Shown one piece after another: positions 49,223-59,942 of a stretch of DNA of 64,000 nt (the first letter of the stretch is position 1; each line of letters begins with the position of its first letter). The notes under the pieces were generated by a model. It was not told where the DNA came from. It saw only the letters and a program-made list of their open reading frames with translations, and did not search any database. Position numbers and translations under genes: made by a program. Source of the DNA: Alphaproteobacteria bacterium (lineage in GTDB: Bacteria > Pseudomonadota > Alphaproteobacteria > Caulobacterales > Aquidulcibacteraceae); contig JANNOO010000033.1 of the NCBI GenBank assembly GCA_031399165.1, positions 5,830-69,829 of the forward strand. The letters run 5' to 3'.

Positions 49223-49298
49223 GCCGCCTTAGCTCAGCCGGTAGAGCACCGCATTCGTAATGCGGGGGTCAGGTGTTCGAGTCACCTAGGCGGCACCA
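49223..49298 (+). tRNA. tRNA-Thr (anticodon CGT)
   Basis: Acceptor GCCGCCT/AGGCGGC, D arm GCTC-AGCCGGTA-GAGC, anticodon arm CCGCA-TTCGTAA-TGCGG, T arm AGGTG-TTCGAGT-CACCT, encoded CCA. Confidence 0.95.
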
Positions 49299-49370
49299 TC
49301 CTCCAGTGCGGCCCGCTAGCGTGCGGCAAGTATCGCCCTGCCGCACGAGGCCCTATATTGCGCGGGTGAT

Positions 49371-50762
49371 TTGCATCCTACATCCCGGACGCCGCCGCCC
49401 TTGAGCACGCCGCCCGCTTCATTCTCCATCCTTGGCTGGACCGCCGCGCCTACGCGCGGCGAGATCGCCTTTGCCTATCACTGCAGCCGCTACGGCGATT
49501 TCGTCGAGACCTACCGATTTCCGCAGGCAGCGCTGGCCGCATTGACGAGCACACAGCACGCGCTGCTGAATCTGGCCGCAATCACGATCGGCGTTTCGTA
49601 TTACAAGGCCAATGCCTGCGGGCGAATTGTGCTTACCACGCCATTCGCCAACCCCGCCGCCCGCGATCTCGCGCATGCGCTTTACAGCGAGGGTCTCGGC
49701 GAATTCTATGTGCGCAACAGCCTGCCTTACCCGCCGCATTTTGTCTTCGAGCCCGCCGAACCCGCGTCATCACCACCGGCCAACGCTCAGCGCAACGCCC
49801 AAAAGCCCGAACGCGCCGTCGTGGCGTTCGGCGGCGGTATGGACAGCCACGTCGCGCTTGGCCTGGTCGAACGCGCAGGCGTCAGCGCAGCGCTGACCAG
49901 CGTCACCATGTCGGACAACATCAAGCGCGTGATCGCCGATTGCAGCGATGCGCCGGTGACGTTTATCGAGCGCGCGCTCGATCAGCGCCTGCTTGCCGCC
50001 AACAGGGCCGGCGCGCTCAATGGCCATATCCCCGTCACCGCGATCAATTCGCTGATCCTGATCCTGCACGCCAGTTTCACCGGCGCCGGCTGGGTCGTGT
50101 TCGCGAACGAAAAATCCGCCGACGAAGTCACCATGACGATCGGCGGCTACGGCGTGAACCACCAATTCAGCAAAACCCTTCGCGCTGAAGCGCTGTTGCG
50201 CGAAGCTGTGCGCGCCGCCGGACCTGACACGCCGGACTATTTCTCAGCTCTGCGGCCGGTAAGCGAACTCTGGATCGCGCGCGAACTGGCGCAGCTTCCC
50301 CGCTCCCTCGCCCGTTTCCGCTCCTGCAACCGCAATTTCGTCCTCTCTGACAAAGCGCGCATGCTCGATGGTCAGCGCTGGTGCGGGCAATGCGCCAAAT
50401 GCGTGTTTACTGCGCTGATCATGGCGCCGTTCCTGCGCCGCGCGCAAAGCGTCGACCTGTTCGGCGCCGACGTGCTAGAAGATCCCGCCAATCTGCCGCT
50501 GGCCGAGGAGCTTGCGGGCTTTACCGGCGCCAAGCCGTGGGAATGCGTCGGCACAGTCGAAGAAGTTTCCGCCGCGCTATCGCATCTGGCTGACGATCCC
50601 GACTGGCAGGGCGCACAGATCGTAGCCGCGCTCGCCCAGCGCGTGCGCGATCGCTCTGGCGCTGCTGCGTTGGCGGCGCATTTTAGTGAGGCCATGATTG
50701 CAAGCGGCGCGCATTTTCTGCCGCCGGCGATGGACTTCGCCGTCTCGCCGGAGCGCGTGTAA
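49371..50762 (+). CDS. murL: candidate UDP-MurNAc-L-Ala-L-Glu epimerase (MurL-like); PP-loop-like ATP-utilising protein
   Basis: 463 aa. PP-loop-like VVAFGGGMDSHVAL and a Cys pair WCGQCAKC. Its TAATG junction overlaps the MurD-family ligase gene by 1 nt. The assignment rests on the described MurD2/MurL pairing. TTG start. Confidence 0.55.
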   Translation: MHPTSRTPPPLSTPPASFSILGWTAAPTRGEIAFAYHCSRYGDFVETYRFPQAALAALTSTQHALLNLAAITIGVSYYKANACGRIVLTTPFANPAARDLAHALYSEGLGEFYVRNSLPYPPHFVFEPAEPASSPPANAQRNAQKPERAVVAFGGGMDSHVALGLVERAGVSAALTSVTMSDNIKRVIADCSDAPVTFIERALDQRLLAANRAGALNGHIPVTAINSLILILHASFTGAGWVVFANEKSADEVTMTIGGYGVNHQFSKTLRAEALLREAVRAAGPDTPDYFSALRPVSELWIARELAQLPRSLARFRSCNRNFVLSDKARMLDGQRWCGQCAKCVFTALIMAPFLRRAQSVDLFGADVLEDPANLPLAEELAGFTGAKPWECVGTVEEVSAALSHLADDPDWQGAQIVAALAQRVRDRSGAAALAAHFSEAMIASGAHFLPPAMDFAVSPERV

Positions 50763-52078
50763 TGCCGCGCGACATCGTTTTGATTGGCGCCGGACGCGAA
50801 GCGCAAGCGGCCGCAACCTATTTCCGCAGCGCCGCGCCGCCTTTCGTGTTTGATGACAATGCCGATAAAGCCCGCGCCTTTGCCGCCGCGAACGGCGCCA
50901 TTGCGCTTGCCTCGTCAGAAGTAATGACGCGCGCTGACGCCTTGTTTCTGCGCGCGCCCGGCATGGCTCCGCGCCACGATCTGCTTGTGGCGCTCAGCGG
51001 CGCCAAGCGCGAGGTCACGACCTATCTCGGCCACTGGCTCACAACGCATCGCCCCGCCGTCCTGGCGACGATCACCGGCAGCAAAGGCAAGAGCACCACG
51101 ACCGCGCTCTGCGCCGCAATCTTAGACAAGGCCGGCCTCAACGTGCGCGCCGGCGGCAATATCGGAATTGTGCCTGAAGGACCGCCGGGCGCGGCGCGCT
51201 GGGTGTTTGAAACCTCATCCTATCAATTGCACGACATCCCCGCTGCCGCCCCCGTGCATGCGATGACCACGCTCTATCCCGAACACCTGGATTGGCACGG
51301 CGGCTTCGACAATTATCTCGCCGCCAAGCTGCGCCCGTTCGCGATCGACGCAACGTGCAAAGGCGTCATTCCGCGCGTTCTTGCCGAACGGCTCAGACAT
51401 TTGCCGAACGAATTGCATCTGGCCGAAGATATTGTCGCGATTAGCGGCGGCGTGCTGACGCTCTCGCATGACGGCGCGCAAGCGAGCGCGCCGATTTCCG
51501 CGCTTGCCGCGGAGCGGCTTGCCAGTCCATTGTTGGCGTACAATTTTACCGTGGCGCTGGCTACAGCGACCATCGCCAGCGGCGCGCCGCTCGATGCACT
51601 CTGCCGCGCCGGCGATTGCGCACTCGCGACATGGACCGGCCTGCCTTCACGGCAAAACATGATCGGCGAATTCGCCCAGCGTGTCTGGGTGGACGATGCG
51701 CTCGCTACCATTCCGCAGGCCACGATGGCCGCGCTTCAGCGCTGGCCTGATCGCGCGGTGCGCCTCATCATGGGCGGACGAAACCGGGAGCAGGATTTCA
51801 CCGCCATGATCGAATACGTAAATGGCCGCGCCGACGTGTACGTCTATGCCTACGGCGATTCCACCGCCCGGTTCGCCGCCAGCCTCAAACGCGCGACCGT
51901 CTGCCAATCGCTCGACGAAGCGCTCGCCGCCGCTTTTGCCGACAGCAAGCCGGGCGAAGTGATGTTGTTCTCGCCAGCCGGCGCCACGAGCGAGCCCGGT
52001 TTCACCTATCAGGATCGCGCGCGCCGCTTTGCCGATTTCGCGAGGGCACAATCCGGAAAAGTGCAGGCCGATGGCTGA
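50762..52078 (+). CDS. murD2: MurD-family Mur ligase outside a dcw cluster (candidate UDP-MurNAc-L-Ala:L-Glu ligase MurD2)
   Basis: P-loop ITGSKGKSTTTALCAAIL, central and C-terminal Mur ligase domains, ~440 aa like MurD. It is coupled to the MurL-like gene. Confidence 0.65.
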   Translation: MPRDIVLIGAGREAQAAATYFRSAAPPFVFDDNADKARAFAAANGAIALASSEVMTRADALFLRAPGMAPRHDLLVALSGAKREVTTYLGHWLTTHRPAVLATITGSKGKSTTTALCAAILDKAGLNVRAGGNIGIVPEGPPGAARWVFETSSYQLHDIPAAAPVHAMTTLYPEHLDWHGGFDNYLAAKLRPFAIDATCKGVIPRVLAERLRHLPNELHLAEDIVAISGGVLTLSHDGAQASAPISALAAERLASPLLAYNFTVALATATIASGAPLDALCRAGDCALATWTGLPSRQNMIGEFAQRVWVDDALATIPQATMAALQRWPDRAVRLIMGGRNREQDFTAMIEYVNGRADVYVYAYGDSTARFAASLKRATVCQSLDEALAAAFADSKPGEVMLFSPAGATSEPGFTYQDRARRFADFARAQSGKVQADG

Positions 52079-52955
52079 TCTGTCAGGCCGAACCATTCGC
52101 GTCGTCGCGCCCGCCCGCTGGGTTGAAGACGTTATCCTGCAACGCTTCGCTGTGCTTGCAAACGCCGCCGGCGCGAAGGTTGAGATCGCGCCGCAATGCG
52201 CCATGCGCGACGGTCAGCTTGCCGGCGACGATTCCGCGCGCGCCAGCGCGCTGAATGACGCGATCACCGATCCTCACGTTGATATCATCTGGTGCGCGCG
52301 TGGCGGCTATGGCTCACCCCGCCTGCTCGACAAGGTCGATTTCAAAGCAGCACGGCGTGACAAATTCCTCGTCGGCTATAGCGACATGACGGCGCTACAC
52401 CAGCGCGCGCTGACAACGCGCGTGCGCCCAGTTCACGCCGCCATGCCTTTCGATCTGCGCCACGAAGACCGCGCCGGCAATTTGGAGCGCGCGCTGCATT
52501 TCTGCGGCGAACTGCTTGATGGCGATCCGGCGCCCCGCGTGTTCGATCTTGCCAGCGTCTCCCCCGGCGCAGCGCACGGCGCGCTGATCGCCGGCAATCT
52601 GCATGTGCTGACAGCGCTGCTGGGCACGGAATTCGAGCCGGACTGGCCTGACGCAATCCTGTGCGTTGAGGATGTCGGCGAATATTACTACGCCATAGAC
52701 CGGCTGTTCTGGCGGCTTTCCCATTCGCGTCTCGCGCCGCGCGTCAAAGGCCTCGCACTCGGCAGCTTCACCGAAAATGAGGACAACGAAATCCCGTGGG
52801 GAAAAACCGTAGAGCAGATCGCCGCTCTGCATTTTCCCAATATTCCCATCGCCACCGGCATGCCGATCGGACATGGCGCGCAGAACAAGCCGCTGGCGCT
52901 TGGCGCGCGCTGCACGCTTGACGTCAGCGGCAAAGCCGCGAGTCTGACCGTCTAG
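52071..52955 (+). CDS. ldcA: LD-carboxypeptidase (peptidase S66, muramoyltetrapeptide carboxypeptidase)
   Basis: ATG at 52071, overlapping the murD2 stop by 8 nt. It has GYSDMTALH (Ser nucleophile), CARGGYGS and the C-terminal ..PIGHG motif. Confidence 0.85.
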
Positions 52956-54352
52956 GCGGAGGGAACGCCTACCAGCAGATCAGCGGCGAACGCCGAGAGC
53001 GTATCGTCGCGCGCGCCCATCACCACGATGCGATCGCCAGCCTGAACGAGCGAGAGCAGATACCGGCCGCATGCCGCCCGATCGTTCAAAGCCACAGCGT
53101 TGCGCCCCGCGGCGCCGACCCCCGCAACGATTTCCGCGCTGCCGACGCTGCGATCCACGGTGCCGCCGAAATAAACCGGCTCCGGCATCACCAGTACGTC
53201 TTGCGCGTTCAGATTGCGCGCGAAGCATTCGATCAGCGCCTCGCGCATGTGTTTCAGCGGGCCAAAACCGTGCGGCTGGAACATCACCAGCAGCCGGCCC
53301 GGAAAATCATGCAGTGTCTTCAGTGTTGCTTCGATCTTGTCGGGATTATGCGCGAAATCGTCGAATACCGTCACGCCCGCGCGCGATCCGACCAGTTCGA
53401 GCCGCCGGCGAATGCCGTCAAACCGTTGCAGCGCCTCAACCGCGCTGGAAAACGGAACGTCCATCGCCCGCGCCGCCGCAAGCGCCGCCAGTGCGTTGGA
53501 TACGTTATGACGCCCCGGCGCTCGCAAATGCACGTCCAGCACGTCGCCGCCGCGCTCACGCACCTCGAAGAAAATCCCATCAGGTTTCGGCATGACATGC
53601 GCGGCGAGAAAATTGGCGGCTGGATTATCGAGGCTGTAGGTGAGCGTCTTTCCCTGCGCGGCTGTGGCCAGATTGGCCACTTCCGCATTATCCAGATTGA
53701 GGATCGCCGTTTCGGACTTGCCCATGAAATCGCTGAACAGAGCGCGCAATTCATCAAGGCTCTTGTGATCGAGCGCGAGATTGTTGAGCACGGCGATGCG
53801 CGGCGTGTAGAGCGCGATCGAGCCATCACTCTCATCCACTTCCGAAACAAACGCTTCGCCCTTGCCAACCCGCGCCGAAGCAAACAGCGCATCGGCGCTG
53901 ACGAAATTCTTCATCACGGCGCCGTTCATGATCGTTGGATCGAGCCCGGCCTCGGTCAATATCCAGCCGATCATGCCCGTCGTAGTCGATTTGCCGCTCG
54001 TGCCGGCGACACCGATCGAGGCGGGCGCGGCGTTGAACAGCGAAGCGAGCAATTCCGCGCGCTTGACGAGGCTGGCGCCAGCCCGCCGCGCCGCCTGAAC
54101 GTCGGGCACGGTTTCCTCAACGGCGGCGGAAATCACCACGCGCTGAGCGGCGCGCGTCACGCCGCTGCCGTCCTGCGGATAGAGCCGCATGCCTTGCGCG
54201 CGCAGATAGGCGAATTTCTCCGGCGTGCGGCCCTGATCCAGCGAACGATCTGACCCTTCGACGGCATGGCCCTGCCCGCGCAGGATCAGCGCCAGCGGCA
54301 GCATGCCGCTGCCGCCAATACCGCAGAAAAAATAGGGCGCGTCGTCCGTCAT
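52952..54352 (-). CDS. MurC-family Mur ligase paralogue (Mpl/MurC-like)
   Basis: [28 protein letters not shown] (MurC/Mpl N-domain), [16 protein letters not shown]-loop, NVSNALAA and DDFAHNP motifs. Confidence 0.8.
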
Positions 54353-54375
54353 GCGCCGGGTTTAAGCATCCCGGC

Positions 54376-55833
54376 TCAGGCTTGTCGCGCGGCTGGCGTA
54401 GGGCCGGGCACAGGACCGATCTGCGCGGCGCGCAGGGTTGGACCAGTAGACGGCTCAACGACCGTGGGCGCATCGACGCGCGCGCCAGCCGGCGGCAAAG
54501 CCAGTACGGAGCCCGCGCCCGCATCCCTGCCGCCGCGCTCCATCCGCGGATGAATCAGCTGGCCCGCGTCGCCATAGACGTAAACCAGCCGCGCCCAATC
54601 AGCGTCTTCATAGAAGAACGCCGGCCCATCTGGATCGAGATCGGACCAATCGGGTTCGCGCGGCGCAACCGCGGCCTGCGCAAGCCAATTGCGCGCGCCA
54701 ACCTCATCGCCCTTGCCACGGCAGACCACCGCAAACAGACCCGATATGCGCGAGGAGGGATTTTCGCGGAACGCTTCTTCCAGCGGGCCCCACGCGGCAT
54801 TCCAATCCTTGCGGTCGAGCGCCAGTTCGGCCGCCAGAATTTTGCTCTCGCGGTGATCGGGTTTCAGCCCCACCAGCGTCGCCATGCGCTTGGCGCGCTC
54901 AGCCGCGGTCTCGTCGTGCTTAAGATCGCGATAGGCGTGCGCGATCGCCGGGTGCGGCGCGTTTTCCCACGCCTCTTCCAGAATGCTCGCCGCCTTCCAG
55001 GCTTTCCCATCTTCGAGCATCAGCCGCGAAGCAAGCGCCGCGGCCGGCGCAAAGCCCGCAGACAAGCGCACGGCCTTTTCCACGCGATCAATCGCCCGGT
55101 CGAGCCGGCCTTCGCGATCTTCGCGCGCCGCCGATGCGGTCATCAGCACGGCCTTACGGCGCGTGACCACACGCAGCTCAACCAGTTTGCGCTTTTCGCC
55201 TTCTTCGAGGGCCTCGATCGCGCCGTCCCAATCGCCGGCCTGCACCTTGAGTTCAAACAGGGTAGTGAACGGCCAGGTCGATGATTTGGCGAGCTTCAGC
55301 GCCGCCTCCGCGTGGCTCATCGCCGCCTGGCGATCGCCGCGCTTTAGCGCCGAAGCCAGCAGCCCCTTGCGGCCGAGCAATTCGGTGTCTTCGTTGGCCA
55401 GCATGCCGGAATAGGCGCGCTCGGCGCCAGCAACATCGCCCGCCACTTCCGCCGCGCGCGCTTCCAGAAGATTGGCCAGGCGCGGTTCTTCAATCAGATT
55501 TTCCGCGCGTTCAGCGTGCTTGCGGGCATCCTCGAACTCGCCTGCCTCAGCGGCGATCAGACCGAGCGCCAGCGATTCCTGGCCTTTCTTGCGCCTCATC
55601 CGCTCATTGGCCTTGCCCAGACGGCCAGGCGAATCGAGCAGCAGCATCAGGAATCGGAGCAGCGGCAGCAGGAACGCCATGAGCAGCATCACCGCCAGAA
55701 CGCCAAACAACGCCGTGGTCTCGATCCGCGTGCCAAACCATTCGATCATCACCAGACCGGGTTGATTGGCGACGGAGATCGCCGCAAGCGCGGCGAACAC
55801 GGCAACAACGAGAAGGATCGCGATGCGAAGCAT
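54376..55833 (-). CDS. HemY-like membrane TPR protein
   Basis: Two N-terminal TM helices (MLRIAILLVVAVFAALAAI.., LFGVLAVMLLMAFLLPLL), then TPR-like repeats. It lies next to hemC/hemD. Confidence 0.8.
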   Translation of the reverse strand: MLRIAILLVVAVFAALAAISVANQPGLVMIEWFGTRIETTALFGVLAVMLLMAFLLPLLRFLMLLLDSPGRLGKANERMRRKKGQESLALGLIAAEAGEFEDARKHAERAENLIEEPRLANLLEARAAEVAGDVAGAERAYSGMLANEDTELLGRKGLLASALKRGDRQAAMSHAEAALKLAKSSTWPFTTLFELKVQAGDWDGAIEALEEGEKRKLVELRVVTRRKAVLMTASAAREDREGRLDRAIDRVEKAVRLSAGFAPAAALASRLMLEDGKAWKAASILEEAWENAPHPAIAHAYRDLKHDETAAERAKRMATLVGLKPDHRESKILAAELALDRKDWNAAWGPLEEAFRENPSSRISGLFAVVCRGKGDEVGARNWLAQAAVAPREPDWSDLDPDGPAFFYEDADWARLVYVYGDAGQLIHPRMERGGRDAGAGSVLALPPAGARVDAPTVVEPSTGPTLRAAQIGPVPGPTPAARQA

Positions 55834-55839
55834 GCCGGC

Positions 55840-57088
55840 CTAACCCTTCTTCGACAATTGCGAGCGGATCGCCGCCAGCCTCTGATCGATTTCCACGCGC
55901 GTCTTGGCCTTTTCGAGCCAGGGCGCGACGACTTTCGCCCCCTCGCCCTTCAGCTTGGAAAGCTGCGCCACCGCGCCGTCCAGATCGTTCGCCTTCATCT
56001 TCGCCGAAGCGCTTTCGACGAGGTCATTGCTATCGTCGCGCTCATCCACGCGGCGCACGACAACGAATTGTGCGAGGCTGGCCTGCACCTGCCCCCACAT
56101 GCCCGCGTCCGGATCGCCCACGCGCGCTGCACGCACCAGCTCCAGTTCAATCTTCGTGAACTGATCGCGCAATTGCTCGCGCGTTGGCGCGCCCTTCTTT
56201 GAAAGCGCGGCGAGCGCCACGACATTCGGGTCTTCCGGCAGCACGCCAACCAGCGCCGCGTAGGCTGGCTCGAACGGGCCAGACGAACGCGCCGCGTCCG
56301 TCGCGGCGGCGACCGCATAGGAAGCGCGCGCCGCATCCGTCGCATCCTTTGCGCCCTTGGCCACATCGGTGAACTGGCCCTGCAAATTATCTACGCGCGT
56401 GGCGACCGCGCCGACATTGGCGTCGAACTTGGCTTCCAGCGCTTTGTTTTGCGCCTGTAGCGCCTGGATCTGCGCCATCATGTCAGCGGGATTGACGCCA
56501 GCGGCCGCTTCGAACGAGAGCACTTTGCCAGCGCGCTTTTCGAGTTCGCCCATACGCGCCTGCAAACTCGCCGTGGCGCGCGCAACTCGCCGTGGCGCGC
56601 GCAACTTGCCCGTCAGTTGCAGCGGACGGGTCTTGCGGCAGCGCTTCCAGCGCCGCGAAACGCTGGCGCAAGGCCGCCGTTTCTTCCGGCCCGCCGGGAA
56701 ACAGCTTCAAGCCGACGTCAATGTTCGCCAGCTTTTTTTGCGCCGCGGCGACGTCCGCCTTCAGCTGTAGATAGTCGGCCTTGAATTGCGGCGACACGCC
56801 GCCGGCCGCATCGATCGCCTGCAATTTCAACTTGGCTTCCGCCAACGTGACGGCGGCCTGGGCCTGTGCAAGGCGCGTCTGCGTGAGTTCATCGGGCGCG
56901 GCTGCGTCCAGCAACGGCGCCAATGCCGGCGTACGCGGCGCAAGCGCGCCCAAAACACCGCCGCCCAGCGCAGACACACAAGCCAGCGCCACCGCTGCGC
57001 CCATGCCTACGCCGCGGCCCTGCGCCGGCTCGAAATCGGCGTCGATCGGTTCGGCGCGTCCGCGCTCGCCGGTATCGTTGGCGGCCAT
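55840..57088 (-). pseudogene. alphaproteobacterial Mic60/mitofilin-like (COG4223) gene interrupted by a frameshift
   Basis: ORFs 56483..57088 (N-terminal TM plus coiled coil) and 55840..56604 (C-terminal mitofilin-like part) overlap at a 19-bp tandem duplication. Deleting one copy joins ...ATDGQVARATA to SLQARMGELEK... in frame, giving 1230 nt. Confidence 0.7.
56565..56602. repeat. perfect 19-bp tandem duplication AACTCGCCGTGGCGCGCGC x2 (plus 4 nt of a third unit)
   Basis: Positions 56565-56583 are identical to 56584-56602, and 56603-56606 (AACT) repeat the unit start. Confidence 0.95.
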
Positions 57089-57160
57089 GAGAATCCCCTC
57101 GCGCCTACGCCTCTATTCAGGCGACTGATTCGCGAATCGTACGGCGAGCCTTGAATCGGC

Positions 57161-57871
57161 TCAAGCGCGTTCGGCGGCAACCTCCTCAAGCAGCGCAAGC
57201 AGCGCTGTTTCACGCGGCGCGGAAGCAACGAGGATTCTCTTGAAATCAAAGGCGGAAGCGCGCTCGGCAGATCGCCCGCCAATACACAACGCATTGAGCC
57301 GCGCAGCCTGTGAACGAAAAAGGGCAGCCTCGGCAATTCGGCAAAATGATTCGGCGCCGCGCGCACTATGAAAAATTACTGAATCCCCGGACGCGTGATT
57401 TGTGAGTAAACTTACCGCCGCTGGCGTAAGCGCATGTGCCATCCGCGCGCGATAAACGATCAGGCGCCGCGCCTCGTACCCGGCGTCGGCGATCGCTTCG
57501 GCAACATTGGCGGCAATATCCTCGCCGCTGACGTGCACCATCGCGCCAGCGCCCGGATCGAGCCCCCGCGCCAGGGCGACGAGATCGACCGCCGCACCAT
57601 CAGCCGAACGCACATCTGTGTAACCGATTGCGCGCGCGGCCTCCGCCGTCCCATCGCCCACGGTCAGCGCCGGCAAATCTTGCATGCCAAGGGCGCGCAC
57701 GCCGGCCGCACTGGTAAATAGCAGGGCCTGCACGCCGGCGGCATCGAAGGTGAACGGCAACGTCTCGGTGATCAGCGCCGGCGACACGACAGGGCGATGG
57801 CCCATGCGCGCAATACGCGCCGCGCTGGCCTCCGCTTCCGGCGCCGCACGCGTGATCAGTACGCGGATCAT
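57161..57871 (-). CDS. hemD: uroporphyrinogen-III synthase
   Basis: 236 aa. HemD-like pattern ([13 protein letters not shown]..., ..LLFTSAAGV..) and a 4-nt overlap with hemC. Confidence 0.8.
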   Translation of the reverse strand: MIRVLITRAAPEAEASAARIARMGHRPVVSPALITETLPFTFDAAGVQALLFTSAAGVRALGMQDLPALTVGDGTAEAARAIGYTDVRSADGAAVDLVALARGLDPGAGAMVHVSGEDIAANVAEAIADAGYEARRLIVYRARMAHALTPAAVSLLTNHASGDSVIFHSARGAESFCRIAEAALFRSQAARLNALCIGGRSAERASAFDFKRILVASAPRETALLALLEEVAAERA

Positions 57872-58815
57872 ATCATCGCGGCGAGCGCCGTTCCGGCTTT
57901 GGCCCTGATCGCGCGCCCAAGCTCAAAGCCGAAAGCCGCCGCCTCCGTCGCATTTGGCAGCGCGGCGGCGTGGCGCGTTTCGTAAAACCGCTGCGCGCCG
58001 TCCTCCGAGAACACTTCGCCGTGCATGCGCCAGCCGGCGCCGTCACGCGCCGCGTGCGCAGCGATCGGCGTGCGGCACGAACCGTCGAGCTCGATCAAAA
58101 ACGCGCGCTCCGCCGCCACCGCAATCCAGGCAGCCTCATTGTTTAACGCCAGCAAGGCGTCAGAAGCCCGCGTGTCGTCAGCACGCGCGGTAATCGCCAG
58201 CGCGCCCTGCGCCGGCGCGGGCAGCATATCGTCGATGTCGATGACGCTGGTGGCGTGTTTCTCAAGGCCGAGACGCTTGAGACCGGCTAGCGCGAGAAAT
58301 GTCGCGTCCGCCTCACCAGCCTCGATCTTGCGTAAGCGCGTTTCAACATTGCCGCGCAGCATCGCCATCTGCAAATCCGGACGCCGGAACAGAAGCTGCG
58401 ATTGGCGGCGCAGACTGGCGCTGCCGACGACAGCGCCATGCGCCAGCTCCGCCGGCGTCTTTGCTTTCAGCGAAATGAAGGCGTCACGCGGGTCTTCCCG
58501 CTCCGGCGTGGCGATTAATTCGATGCCGGGCGGCAGGCGCGTCGGCAGATCCTTCGCCGAATGTATGGCCAGATCAATGCGGCGATCGAACAGCGCCTCA
58601 TCCAGTTCCTTGGTGAAAAGCCCCTTGCCGCCGGCCTCGGAAAGCGGACGGTCCTGGATGCGGTCGCCGGTCGTGGTGATCGCCAAGATGGGCAGACGTT
58701 CGTCGAGACCGCCTGCCGCCACGCCCAGGAGGGCGCCAAGACGCGCCTGCGTGCGGCGCGTCTGCGCCATCGAAAGCGGGGAGCCCCGCGCGCCTATGCG
58801 AAAAATCACCGTCAT
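57868..58815 (-). CDS. hemC: hydroxymethylbilane synthase (porphobilinogen deaminase)
   Basis: [47 protein letters not shown] and GSCRTPIA motifs. Confidence 0.95.
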
Positions 58816-58847
58816 GCGCTAACAAGCGCGACCTATCAGGCGCGCGC

Positions 58848-59942
58848 GTGAACGACAAATCAGATTTCGGCCCCGTCCTTGGCATCGAGACCAGCTGCGA
58901 TGAAACGGCGGCGGCGGTCGTGCGCCTTGTCGGCGGCAAGCCCGAAATCCTGTCCGATGTGATCTGGAGTCAGGACGAGGAGCATGCCCCCTATGCTGGC
59001 GTGGTGCCGGAAATCGCGGCCCGGGCGCATGTCGAGAAAGTTGATTTGGCCATCGCCGAGGCGATGAGGAGCGCCGGGCTGGGGTTTGACCGCCTCGCCG
59101 GAATAGCTGCGACCGCGGGGCCGGGGCTGATCGGCGGCGTGATGGTGGGGCTGACAGCCGGCAAAGCGGTCGCGATGGCGCGCAACCTGCCCTTCTCGGC
59201 GGTGAACCACCTCGAAGGCCACGCTTTATCGCCGCGTCTGACTGGCGCGGCGCCGTTTCCTTATCTGCTGCTGCTGGCCTCGGGCGGACATTGCCAATTC
59301 ATCGCTGTGCGCGGCGTTGGCAACTATACCCGGCTGGGAACCACAATAGACGACGCGGCAGGCGAGGCGTTCGACAAAGCCGCCAAACTGCTCGGCTTCG
59401 GCTTTCCAGGCGGCCCGGCGATCGAGGCGGCGGCAAAAACGGGCGATCCGGGCCGCTACGCGCTGCCGCGGCCACTGCGCGGCCGGGCCGGGTGCGACCT
59501 TTCCTTTGCGGGATTAAAGAGCGCGCTGGCGCGGCTGGCCGAGAACGCGACCAGCGACCAGGACCGCGCCGATCTGGCCGCCTCATTCCAGGCAGCCGTA
59601 CTCGACGTCATTGATGACCGCACCGCCAACGCGATTGAGATTTACGAACGTCTAGGACTTGGCGGAGGGCTGTTCGTCACCGCCGGGGGCGTCGCCGCCA
59701 ATGCCGCGCTGCGGGCCCGGCTGGAGCGCCTAACCGAGGCGCGGGGCTATCGATTCATTGCTCCGCCACCGCGCTATTGCACGGATAACGCCGCCATGAT
59801 CGCGCTGGCAGGAATTGAACGATTAAACATTGGATTCAGCGATCAGATGAGCACGCCGCCGCGGGCGCGCTGGCCGCTGGATGAGCATGCGGCTGTAGCG
59901 CGGCCCACTCACGCGGCTGGCCGAAAGGGCGCCAAGGCGTGA
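58848..59942 (+). CDS. tsaD: tRNA N6-adenosine threonylcarbamoyltransferase
   Basis: [23 protein letters not shown] and LLASGGH motifs. GTG start. Confidence 0.95.

Follow-up and report, generated by a model that had tools for sequence, protein, structure and literature searches.

The mic60-like gene of the window (the whole 64-kb stretch of DNA analysed here) stands in a string of hem genes and is divided between two overlapping open reading frames (ORFs). Is this gene naturally divided in its lineage, has it been inactivated by a recent mutation, can it be switched on and off, or was it broken only in the assembly? The gene, its parts and its neighbors are as follows.

54376–55833, minus strand: orf52-type HemY_N/TPR membrane protein (Pfam; TIGR00540-like HemY TPR)
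55840–57088, minus strand: whole mic60 (Mitofilin/COG4223-type), frameshifted in this assembly (ORFs, Pfam, homologues, and profile)
55840–56604, minus strand: C-terminal ORF of mic60, 254 aa, TTG start, carrying the Mitofilin domain without a membrane anchor
56476–56485, minus strand: TGAcATGATG, a putative termination–reinitiation site suggested by its sequence
56483–57088, minus strand: N-terminal ORF of mic60, 201 aa, with a transmembrane helix at about residues 29–48, a predicted helical/coiled-coil region, 33 out-of-frame residues, and a stop
57161–57871, minus strand: hemD, uroporphyrinogen-III synthase (Pfam HEM4)
57868–58815, minus strand: hemC, porphobilinogen deaminase (Pfam Porphobil_deam)

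The four genes lie in the order hemC–hemD–mic60–orf52, all on the minus strand and separated by very small gaps, and orf52 starts 6 nt past the mic60 stop, so close that the two are probably co-translated. This gene order is common to most alphaproteobacteria, in which orf52 is "sometimes misannotated as hemY", and mic60 and orf52 are co-transcribed in Rhodobacter sphaeroides (Muñoz-Gómez and colleagues, 10.1101/2022.06.14.496148). An earlier reading of the window, made from the sequence only, had placed mic60 in a string running from hemC and hemD to hemY. Pfam confirmed hemC and hemD; the supposed hemY encodes a TPR membrane protein of the Orf52 type rather than a protoporphyrinogen oxidase.

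The overlapping ORFs of 201 and 254 aa claimed by the sequence-only reading were found as described on the minus strand. The N-terminal ORF contains ...GQVARATASCARHGEF... and ends in a stop, and the C-terminal ORF contains MRAPRRVARATASLQARMGELEK...; VARATAS is present in both. About 226 nt (window 56483–56709) are shared by the two frames, and two ATG codons of the C-terminal frame start one base past the stop of the N-terminal ORF. No recognizable Shine–Dalgarno sequence was found before the internal starts of the C-terminal frame. In the public gene call, the C-terminal part is 227 aa long and starts at a GTG at 56523. When one unit of the duplication is read instead of two, a frame of 1230 nt is restored, as had been claimed, and the resulting 409-aa protein contains ...ATDGQVARATASLQARMGELEKRAGK....

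The duplication itself and the sequence that follows it are arranged as follows.

56565–56583, no strand assigned: 19-bp unit, copy 1, AACTCGCCGTGGCGCGCGC (Tandem Repeats Finder and sequence comparison)
56584–56602, no strand assigned: 19-bp unit, copy 2, identical to copy 1 and missing in Logan contig L030 and in the relatives
56603–56610, no strand assigned: AACTTGCC, a partial third copy matching the unit start at 7 of 8 positions, also present in the single-copy allele

Within the whole window, the plus strand has AACTCGCCGTGGCGCGCGC at exactly two positions, 56565 and 56584, in head-to-tail order. The two copies are identical and adjacent, which bears out the perfect 19-bp tandem duplication that had been reported at 56565–56602. 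Tandem Repeats Finder delimited the repeat at 56565–56610 with a period of 19, 2.4 copies, and 96% matches. The junction of copies 1 and 2 reads ...GTGGCGCGCGCAACTCGCCGTGG..., and the left flank, one unit, and the right flank together read TGCAAACTCGCCGTGGCGCGCGCAACTTGCC. Given the base composition of the window, perfect duplications of period 19 are expected by chance at ~1e-6 per 64 kb. This is the sole perfect tandem duplication with a period of 12–40 within the 64-kb window, and none of that kind appeared in five shuffles of the window. Neither allele showed an unusual hairpin on DNA folding (z-scores from -0.03 to 1.0), which gives no support to a structure-driven duplication mechanism.

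Several lines of evidence identify the divided gene as mic60. The Pfam Mitofilin profile (PF09731) matched residues 60–244 of the 254-aa ORF with 42.3 bits against a cut-off of 27.4. In a six-frame Pfam search of the genome, mic60 scored 41.3 bits for Mitofilin, again above the cut-off, and no second Mitofilin gene was found in the 3.05 Mb, so that mic60 is the sole one. A profile built from 35 homologues matched 7pv1_A (a Mic60–Mic19 fusion) with an E-value of 1.2e-5 at profile positions 352–414; 7PV1 is a crystal structure of the Mic60 mitofilin domain. The strongest hydropathy was at residues 27–50, which form a single N-terminal transmembrane segment. The AlphaFold model was all-helical, with a helix at 29–48 (low pLDDT) and long helices at 67–94, 100–128, 159–189, and 194–261. 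Its mean pLDDT was 61.7, the values being below 60 before residue 200 and about 75–85 after it. Compared with the PDB by Foldseek, the full-length model had no match at E <0.001, and such an elongated, partly low-confidence model suits this search poorly. No NCBIfam model matches this Mic60, and homologues are named "mitofilin family membrane protein" or "COG4223 family protein" in public records. The Mic60 architecture proposed for the restored protein is thus supported by the Mitofilin score above the cut-off, the 7PV1 profile match, the N-terminal transmembrane segment, and the synteny with the hem genes. The window copy is a disrupted allele of a Mic60 family member.

We compared the locus with that of related bacteria. 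In a genome of the same genus (G003), the gene shows 86% amino acid identity and is one ORF of 418 aa that reads ...ATDAQLARATASLQARVGELEKRAGK... with a single copy of the unit, and in the alignment of the two genes, the 19-bp gap is the sole frame-breaking difference. The corresponding gene of G001 (59% amino acid identity; P0018, 417 aa) is also one frame with a single unit copy. At least 20 database proteins with 55–94% identity have lengths of 409–421 aa and align at full coverage, and a JGI contig with 94% amino acid identity is single-copy. No duplication at the mic60 site was found among the relatives examined. Because the relatives all have one ORF, mic60 is not naturally split in this lineage. 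The sequence-only reading had named a natural pair of genes in relatives as what would speak against it; the orthologues are single genes, and this objection does not apply. We therefore rejected a natural two-gene arrangement, every relative having one ORF of about 410 aa. We also searched contigs of JGI metagenomes and of GTDB genomes with a degenerate pattern for the junction and obtained 0 matches. The single-copy control likewise gave 0 matches in the metagenome contigs; it matches exactly the JGI contig Ga0370505_0007690, which lies outside the scanned metagenome contig collection, and the 0 matches for the junction therefore carry no weight.

The lengths of the homologues differ between the taxonomic levels. 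Genus-level Mic60 proteins are 409–421 aa long, and most family-level homologues are 327–340 aa long and align to the C-terminal 50–70% only; therefore, as far as these alignments indicate, the Mic60 of this genus has a longer N-terminal or coiled-coil part than the family-level homologues. Two other proteins carry a hemD-type domain. P0095 (643 aa) has both HEM4 (PF02602) and Mitofilin (PF09731) annotations, and P0093 (584 aa) has HEM4 only, yet aligns weakly with the Mic60 query. These proteins may be hemD–mic60 fusions or read-through gene calls in other lineages.

An intact allele was found in public reads. In the 90% cluster of the N-terminal ORF, a 409-aa Logan protein (P0099) is letter for letter the read-through protein. 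The Logan contig L030 (SRR20217204, 4835 bases) carries hemC–hemD–mic60–orf52, and its mic60 is the single uninterrupted ORF with both the anchor and the Mitofilin domain that is absent in the window copy. Two contigs of this run (one with hem/mic60 and one with murL/murD) were compared with the window. L030 aligned with window 54287–59140 with 0 mismatches and one 19-bp gap, and the second contig (L032, 4094 bases) was 100% identical to window 49271–53364. Over the 8,929 bases compared in total, there were zero substitutions, and the duplication was the sole indel. No exact copies of the flanking proteins were found in any other run, and no exact matches were found for three other window proteins. 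Since there were zero substitutions and the flanking proteins occurred in no other run, we infer that SRR20217204 samples the same population as the window genome. This run is quite possibly the source of the metagenome-assembled genome (MAG); a full-text literature search for SRR20217204 returned no paper.

How the genome was assembled bears on whether the duplication is real. The genome comprises 3.05 Mb in 62 contigs with 98.9% completeness and 1.1% contamination, and the window corresponds to 5830–69829 of contig C20. Contig sizes go down to slightly more than 1.5 kb, and at nine pairs of contig ends the overlap is exactly 141 bases, which is the final k of MEGAHIT. These overlaps indicate a short-read MAG consisting of unmodified de Bruijn-graph contigs. 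The duplication junction contains 17 22-mers that are absent from the single-copy genome and differ from their nearest counterparts by 1–5 mismatches (3–5 for the central ones), so with a de Bruijn assembler at a k of 21 or more, they must have come from reads. The single-copy allele has in turn seven 31-mers specific to it, so L030 is not a collapse of the duplication. Both alleles most probably exist as DNA.

Tandem duplications elsewhere in the genome were also inspected. Five other two-copy duplications of 18–23 bp, perfect or near-perfect and outside the window, are at C34:57159–57205, C14:20522–20560, C54:2051–2089, C53:4302–4338, and C20:106086–106128. When one copy was removed from each of these five in a simple open-frame test, none joined two long ORFs. 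Among the nine strongest tandem duplications of the genome, only that of mic60 joins long ORFs on removal (288 + 209 to 417 aa). A systematic assembler error was rejected, no other gene being split in this manner among the nine.

We next consider how the duplication could have arisen and what it would do. In the single-copy allele (L030), the unit begins with AACTCGCC and is directly followed by AACTTGCC. The two lie 19 bp apart and form a direct repeat that matches at 7 of 8 positions; the chance of a match of at least 7/8 at the boundaries is P of about 7e-4. Replication slippage between these imperfect direct repeats would have copied 19 bp inside mic60. The resulting +1 frameshift at about codon 168, within the helix predicted at 159–189, would stop translation after 201 residues. 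It would fall between the anchor on one side and the long helix plus Mitofilin domain on the other. What is made of the N-terminal part would then consist of the transmembrane segment, about 120 residues of predicted periplasmic helix, and 33 wrong residues, lacking the Mitofilin domain. This domain would be obtainable by internal initiation only, and some reinitiation at TGAcATGATG is conceivable. The C-terminal fragment, having no anchor or export signal, would be cytoplasmic, which is the wrong side of the membrane. From this architecture, the duplicated allele is inferred to be a loss-of-function allele. Orf52 might be lowered as well if translation of the distal 640 nt is reduced. Separately, reinitiation at TGAcATGATG could lessen polarity on the downstream orf52. 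Reversion would be possible by the same slippage, as for any short tandem duplication. Because public reads contain the intact allele with an otherwise identical background, the two alleles probably segregate within a single natural population or among populations that are very closely related.

The window copy most likely represents a natural variant, of very recent origin, in which the sole mic60 of this genome has lost its function. We assign a probability of about 0.7 to a real, very recent microhomology-mediated tandem duplication that yields a loss-of-function allele, the intact allele existing on an otherwise identical background. Of the explanations offered by the sequence-only reading, the recent inactivating mutation is the one favored by the junction words, the slippage signature, and the intact allele on the identical background.

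The strongest competitor to be weighed is an artefact, in which the duplication would derive from library preparation (template switching at microhomology), assembly, or post-assembly processing, and the true gene would be intact. This would fit the single-copy form obtained where a public run was assembled independently, its background being 100% identical, the fact that the ORFs of the duplicated allele are on record solely from the window's own assembly, and the fragmented, metagenome-type character of a genome in 62 contigs. However, the 141-base overlaps point to raw MEGAHIT output, which is unable to invent the 17 junction 22-mers, and a concatenation would not be expected to fall exactly on a 7/8 microhomology. 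Moreover, the other eight of the nine strongest tandem duplications of the genome split no gene in this manner, and the rest of the 8.9 kb compared is without errors. We therefore regard an artefact as unlikely. If the MAG was built from SRR20217204, two assemblers picked different alleles, and the duplicated one could then represent a minority variant or stem from a few PCR-duplicated chimeric molecules. The split gene might, alternatively, still be functional, either as two polypeptides or through programmed +1 frameshifting that would give a full-length protein with six extra residues. The overlap of the frames and the paired ATG codons next to the stop of the N-terminal ORF would allow a C-terminal fragment to be made, but no relative has two genes, such a fragment lacks a transmembrane or export signal, and the internal starts have no recognizable Shine–Dalgarno sequence, nor was a shift-prone motif noted. 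With zero substitutions separating it from the intact allele, the split gene has also had no time to adapt. This makes a functional split gene very improbable, and programmed frameshifting was rejected on the comparative evidence of single ORFs in the relatives.

A reversible ON/OFF switch, in which gain and loss of the 19 bp would toggle Mic60 and perhaps the coupled orf52 between two states of membrane architecture kept by selection, would fit the occurrence of both alleles on an identical background. Being a short, perfect tandem repeat with microhomology, the structure can by its nature revert, and tandem duplications act as reversible switches in other organisms (PMC13688802). The genome also carries pufL and pufM, and Mic60 matters for photoheterotrophic growth in the model species (10.1101/2022.06.14.496148). 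Against this, there is no recurrence, with 0 duplications at the site in the relatives examined, and no specialized repeat tract, only an 8-bp imperfect microhomology of a ubiquitous kind. Nor is there a sign of reversion or selection; one mutation, neutral or mildly deleterious, fits equally well. A switch kept by selection is accordingly quite unlikely. It is highly doubtful that the alleles coexist at appreciable frequency in one pufLM-carrying population, with the duplication acting as an ON/OFF toggle of mic60 and, by polarity, of orf52; if this were true, it would be a natural case of bet-hedging over envelope or photosynthetic-membrane architecture. The reading that we prefer remains the recent loss-of-function mutation.

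Outside the window, adjacent and intact genes for pufL and pufM (Photo_RC, PF00124; 364 and 326 bits) are located at C32:58013–59676. They are absent in three genomes of the same genus and present in eight other family- or order-level relatives. Either phototrophy is patchy in this family of Caulobacterales or contig C32 is mis-binned. In R. sphaeroides and Rhodopseudomonas palustris, ∆mic60 mutants grow normally under chemoheterotrophic conditions and more slowly under photoheterotrophic conditions, most clearly in low light (10.1101/2022.06.14.496148). Because Mic60 is dispensable for the chemoheterotrophic growth of these model alphaproteobacteria, loss of mic60 is probably tolerated, and a null allele is expected to be viable.

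Annotation pipelines will report this mic60 as two hypothetical proteins or as a pseudogene, although the intact allele is in public data. A natural mic60-null allele beside an intact one, in a lineage with reaction-centre genes, would be a small natural experiment, and it bears on the purpose of bacterial Mic60 beyond the two purple model species. The gene family and the kind of mutation are known, and the intact allele is public. The duplication itself opens no new question and involves no new mechanism, since frameshifts caused by short tandem duplications belong to a well-known class of mutations.

Phase variation through spontaneous tandem duplications in a coding gene, which are precisely lost again, occurs in cap3A of Streptococcus pneumoniae, where many independent duplications recur and reversion has been measured. 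As in cap3A, the duplication that would inactivate mic60 is short, in tandem, and open to precise loss; in mic60, in contrast, there is one event, seen once. The microhomology-mediated tandem duplications (MTDs) and slipped-strand duplications known, for example, from ssp1 and gaf1 of fission yeast (PMC13688802 and its reference 16) are likewise perfect and head to tail, are bounded by short direct repeats, shift the reading frame, and coexist with the pre-duplication allele in the same population. The case described here differs from them in its 8-bp microhomology with one mismatch and its uncultured bacterial host. The studied alphaproteobacterial Mic60 proteins, those of R. sphaeroides and R. 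palustris, are built like the restored protein of the window, with one N-terminal transmembrane helix, a Mitofilin domain at the C terminus, and a middle part that is predicted to be helical in the window protein. Their genes stand in the same hemC–hemD–mic60–orf52 order as in the window, where the mic60 frame is, unlike theirs, interrupted at about codon 168.
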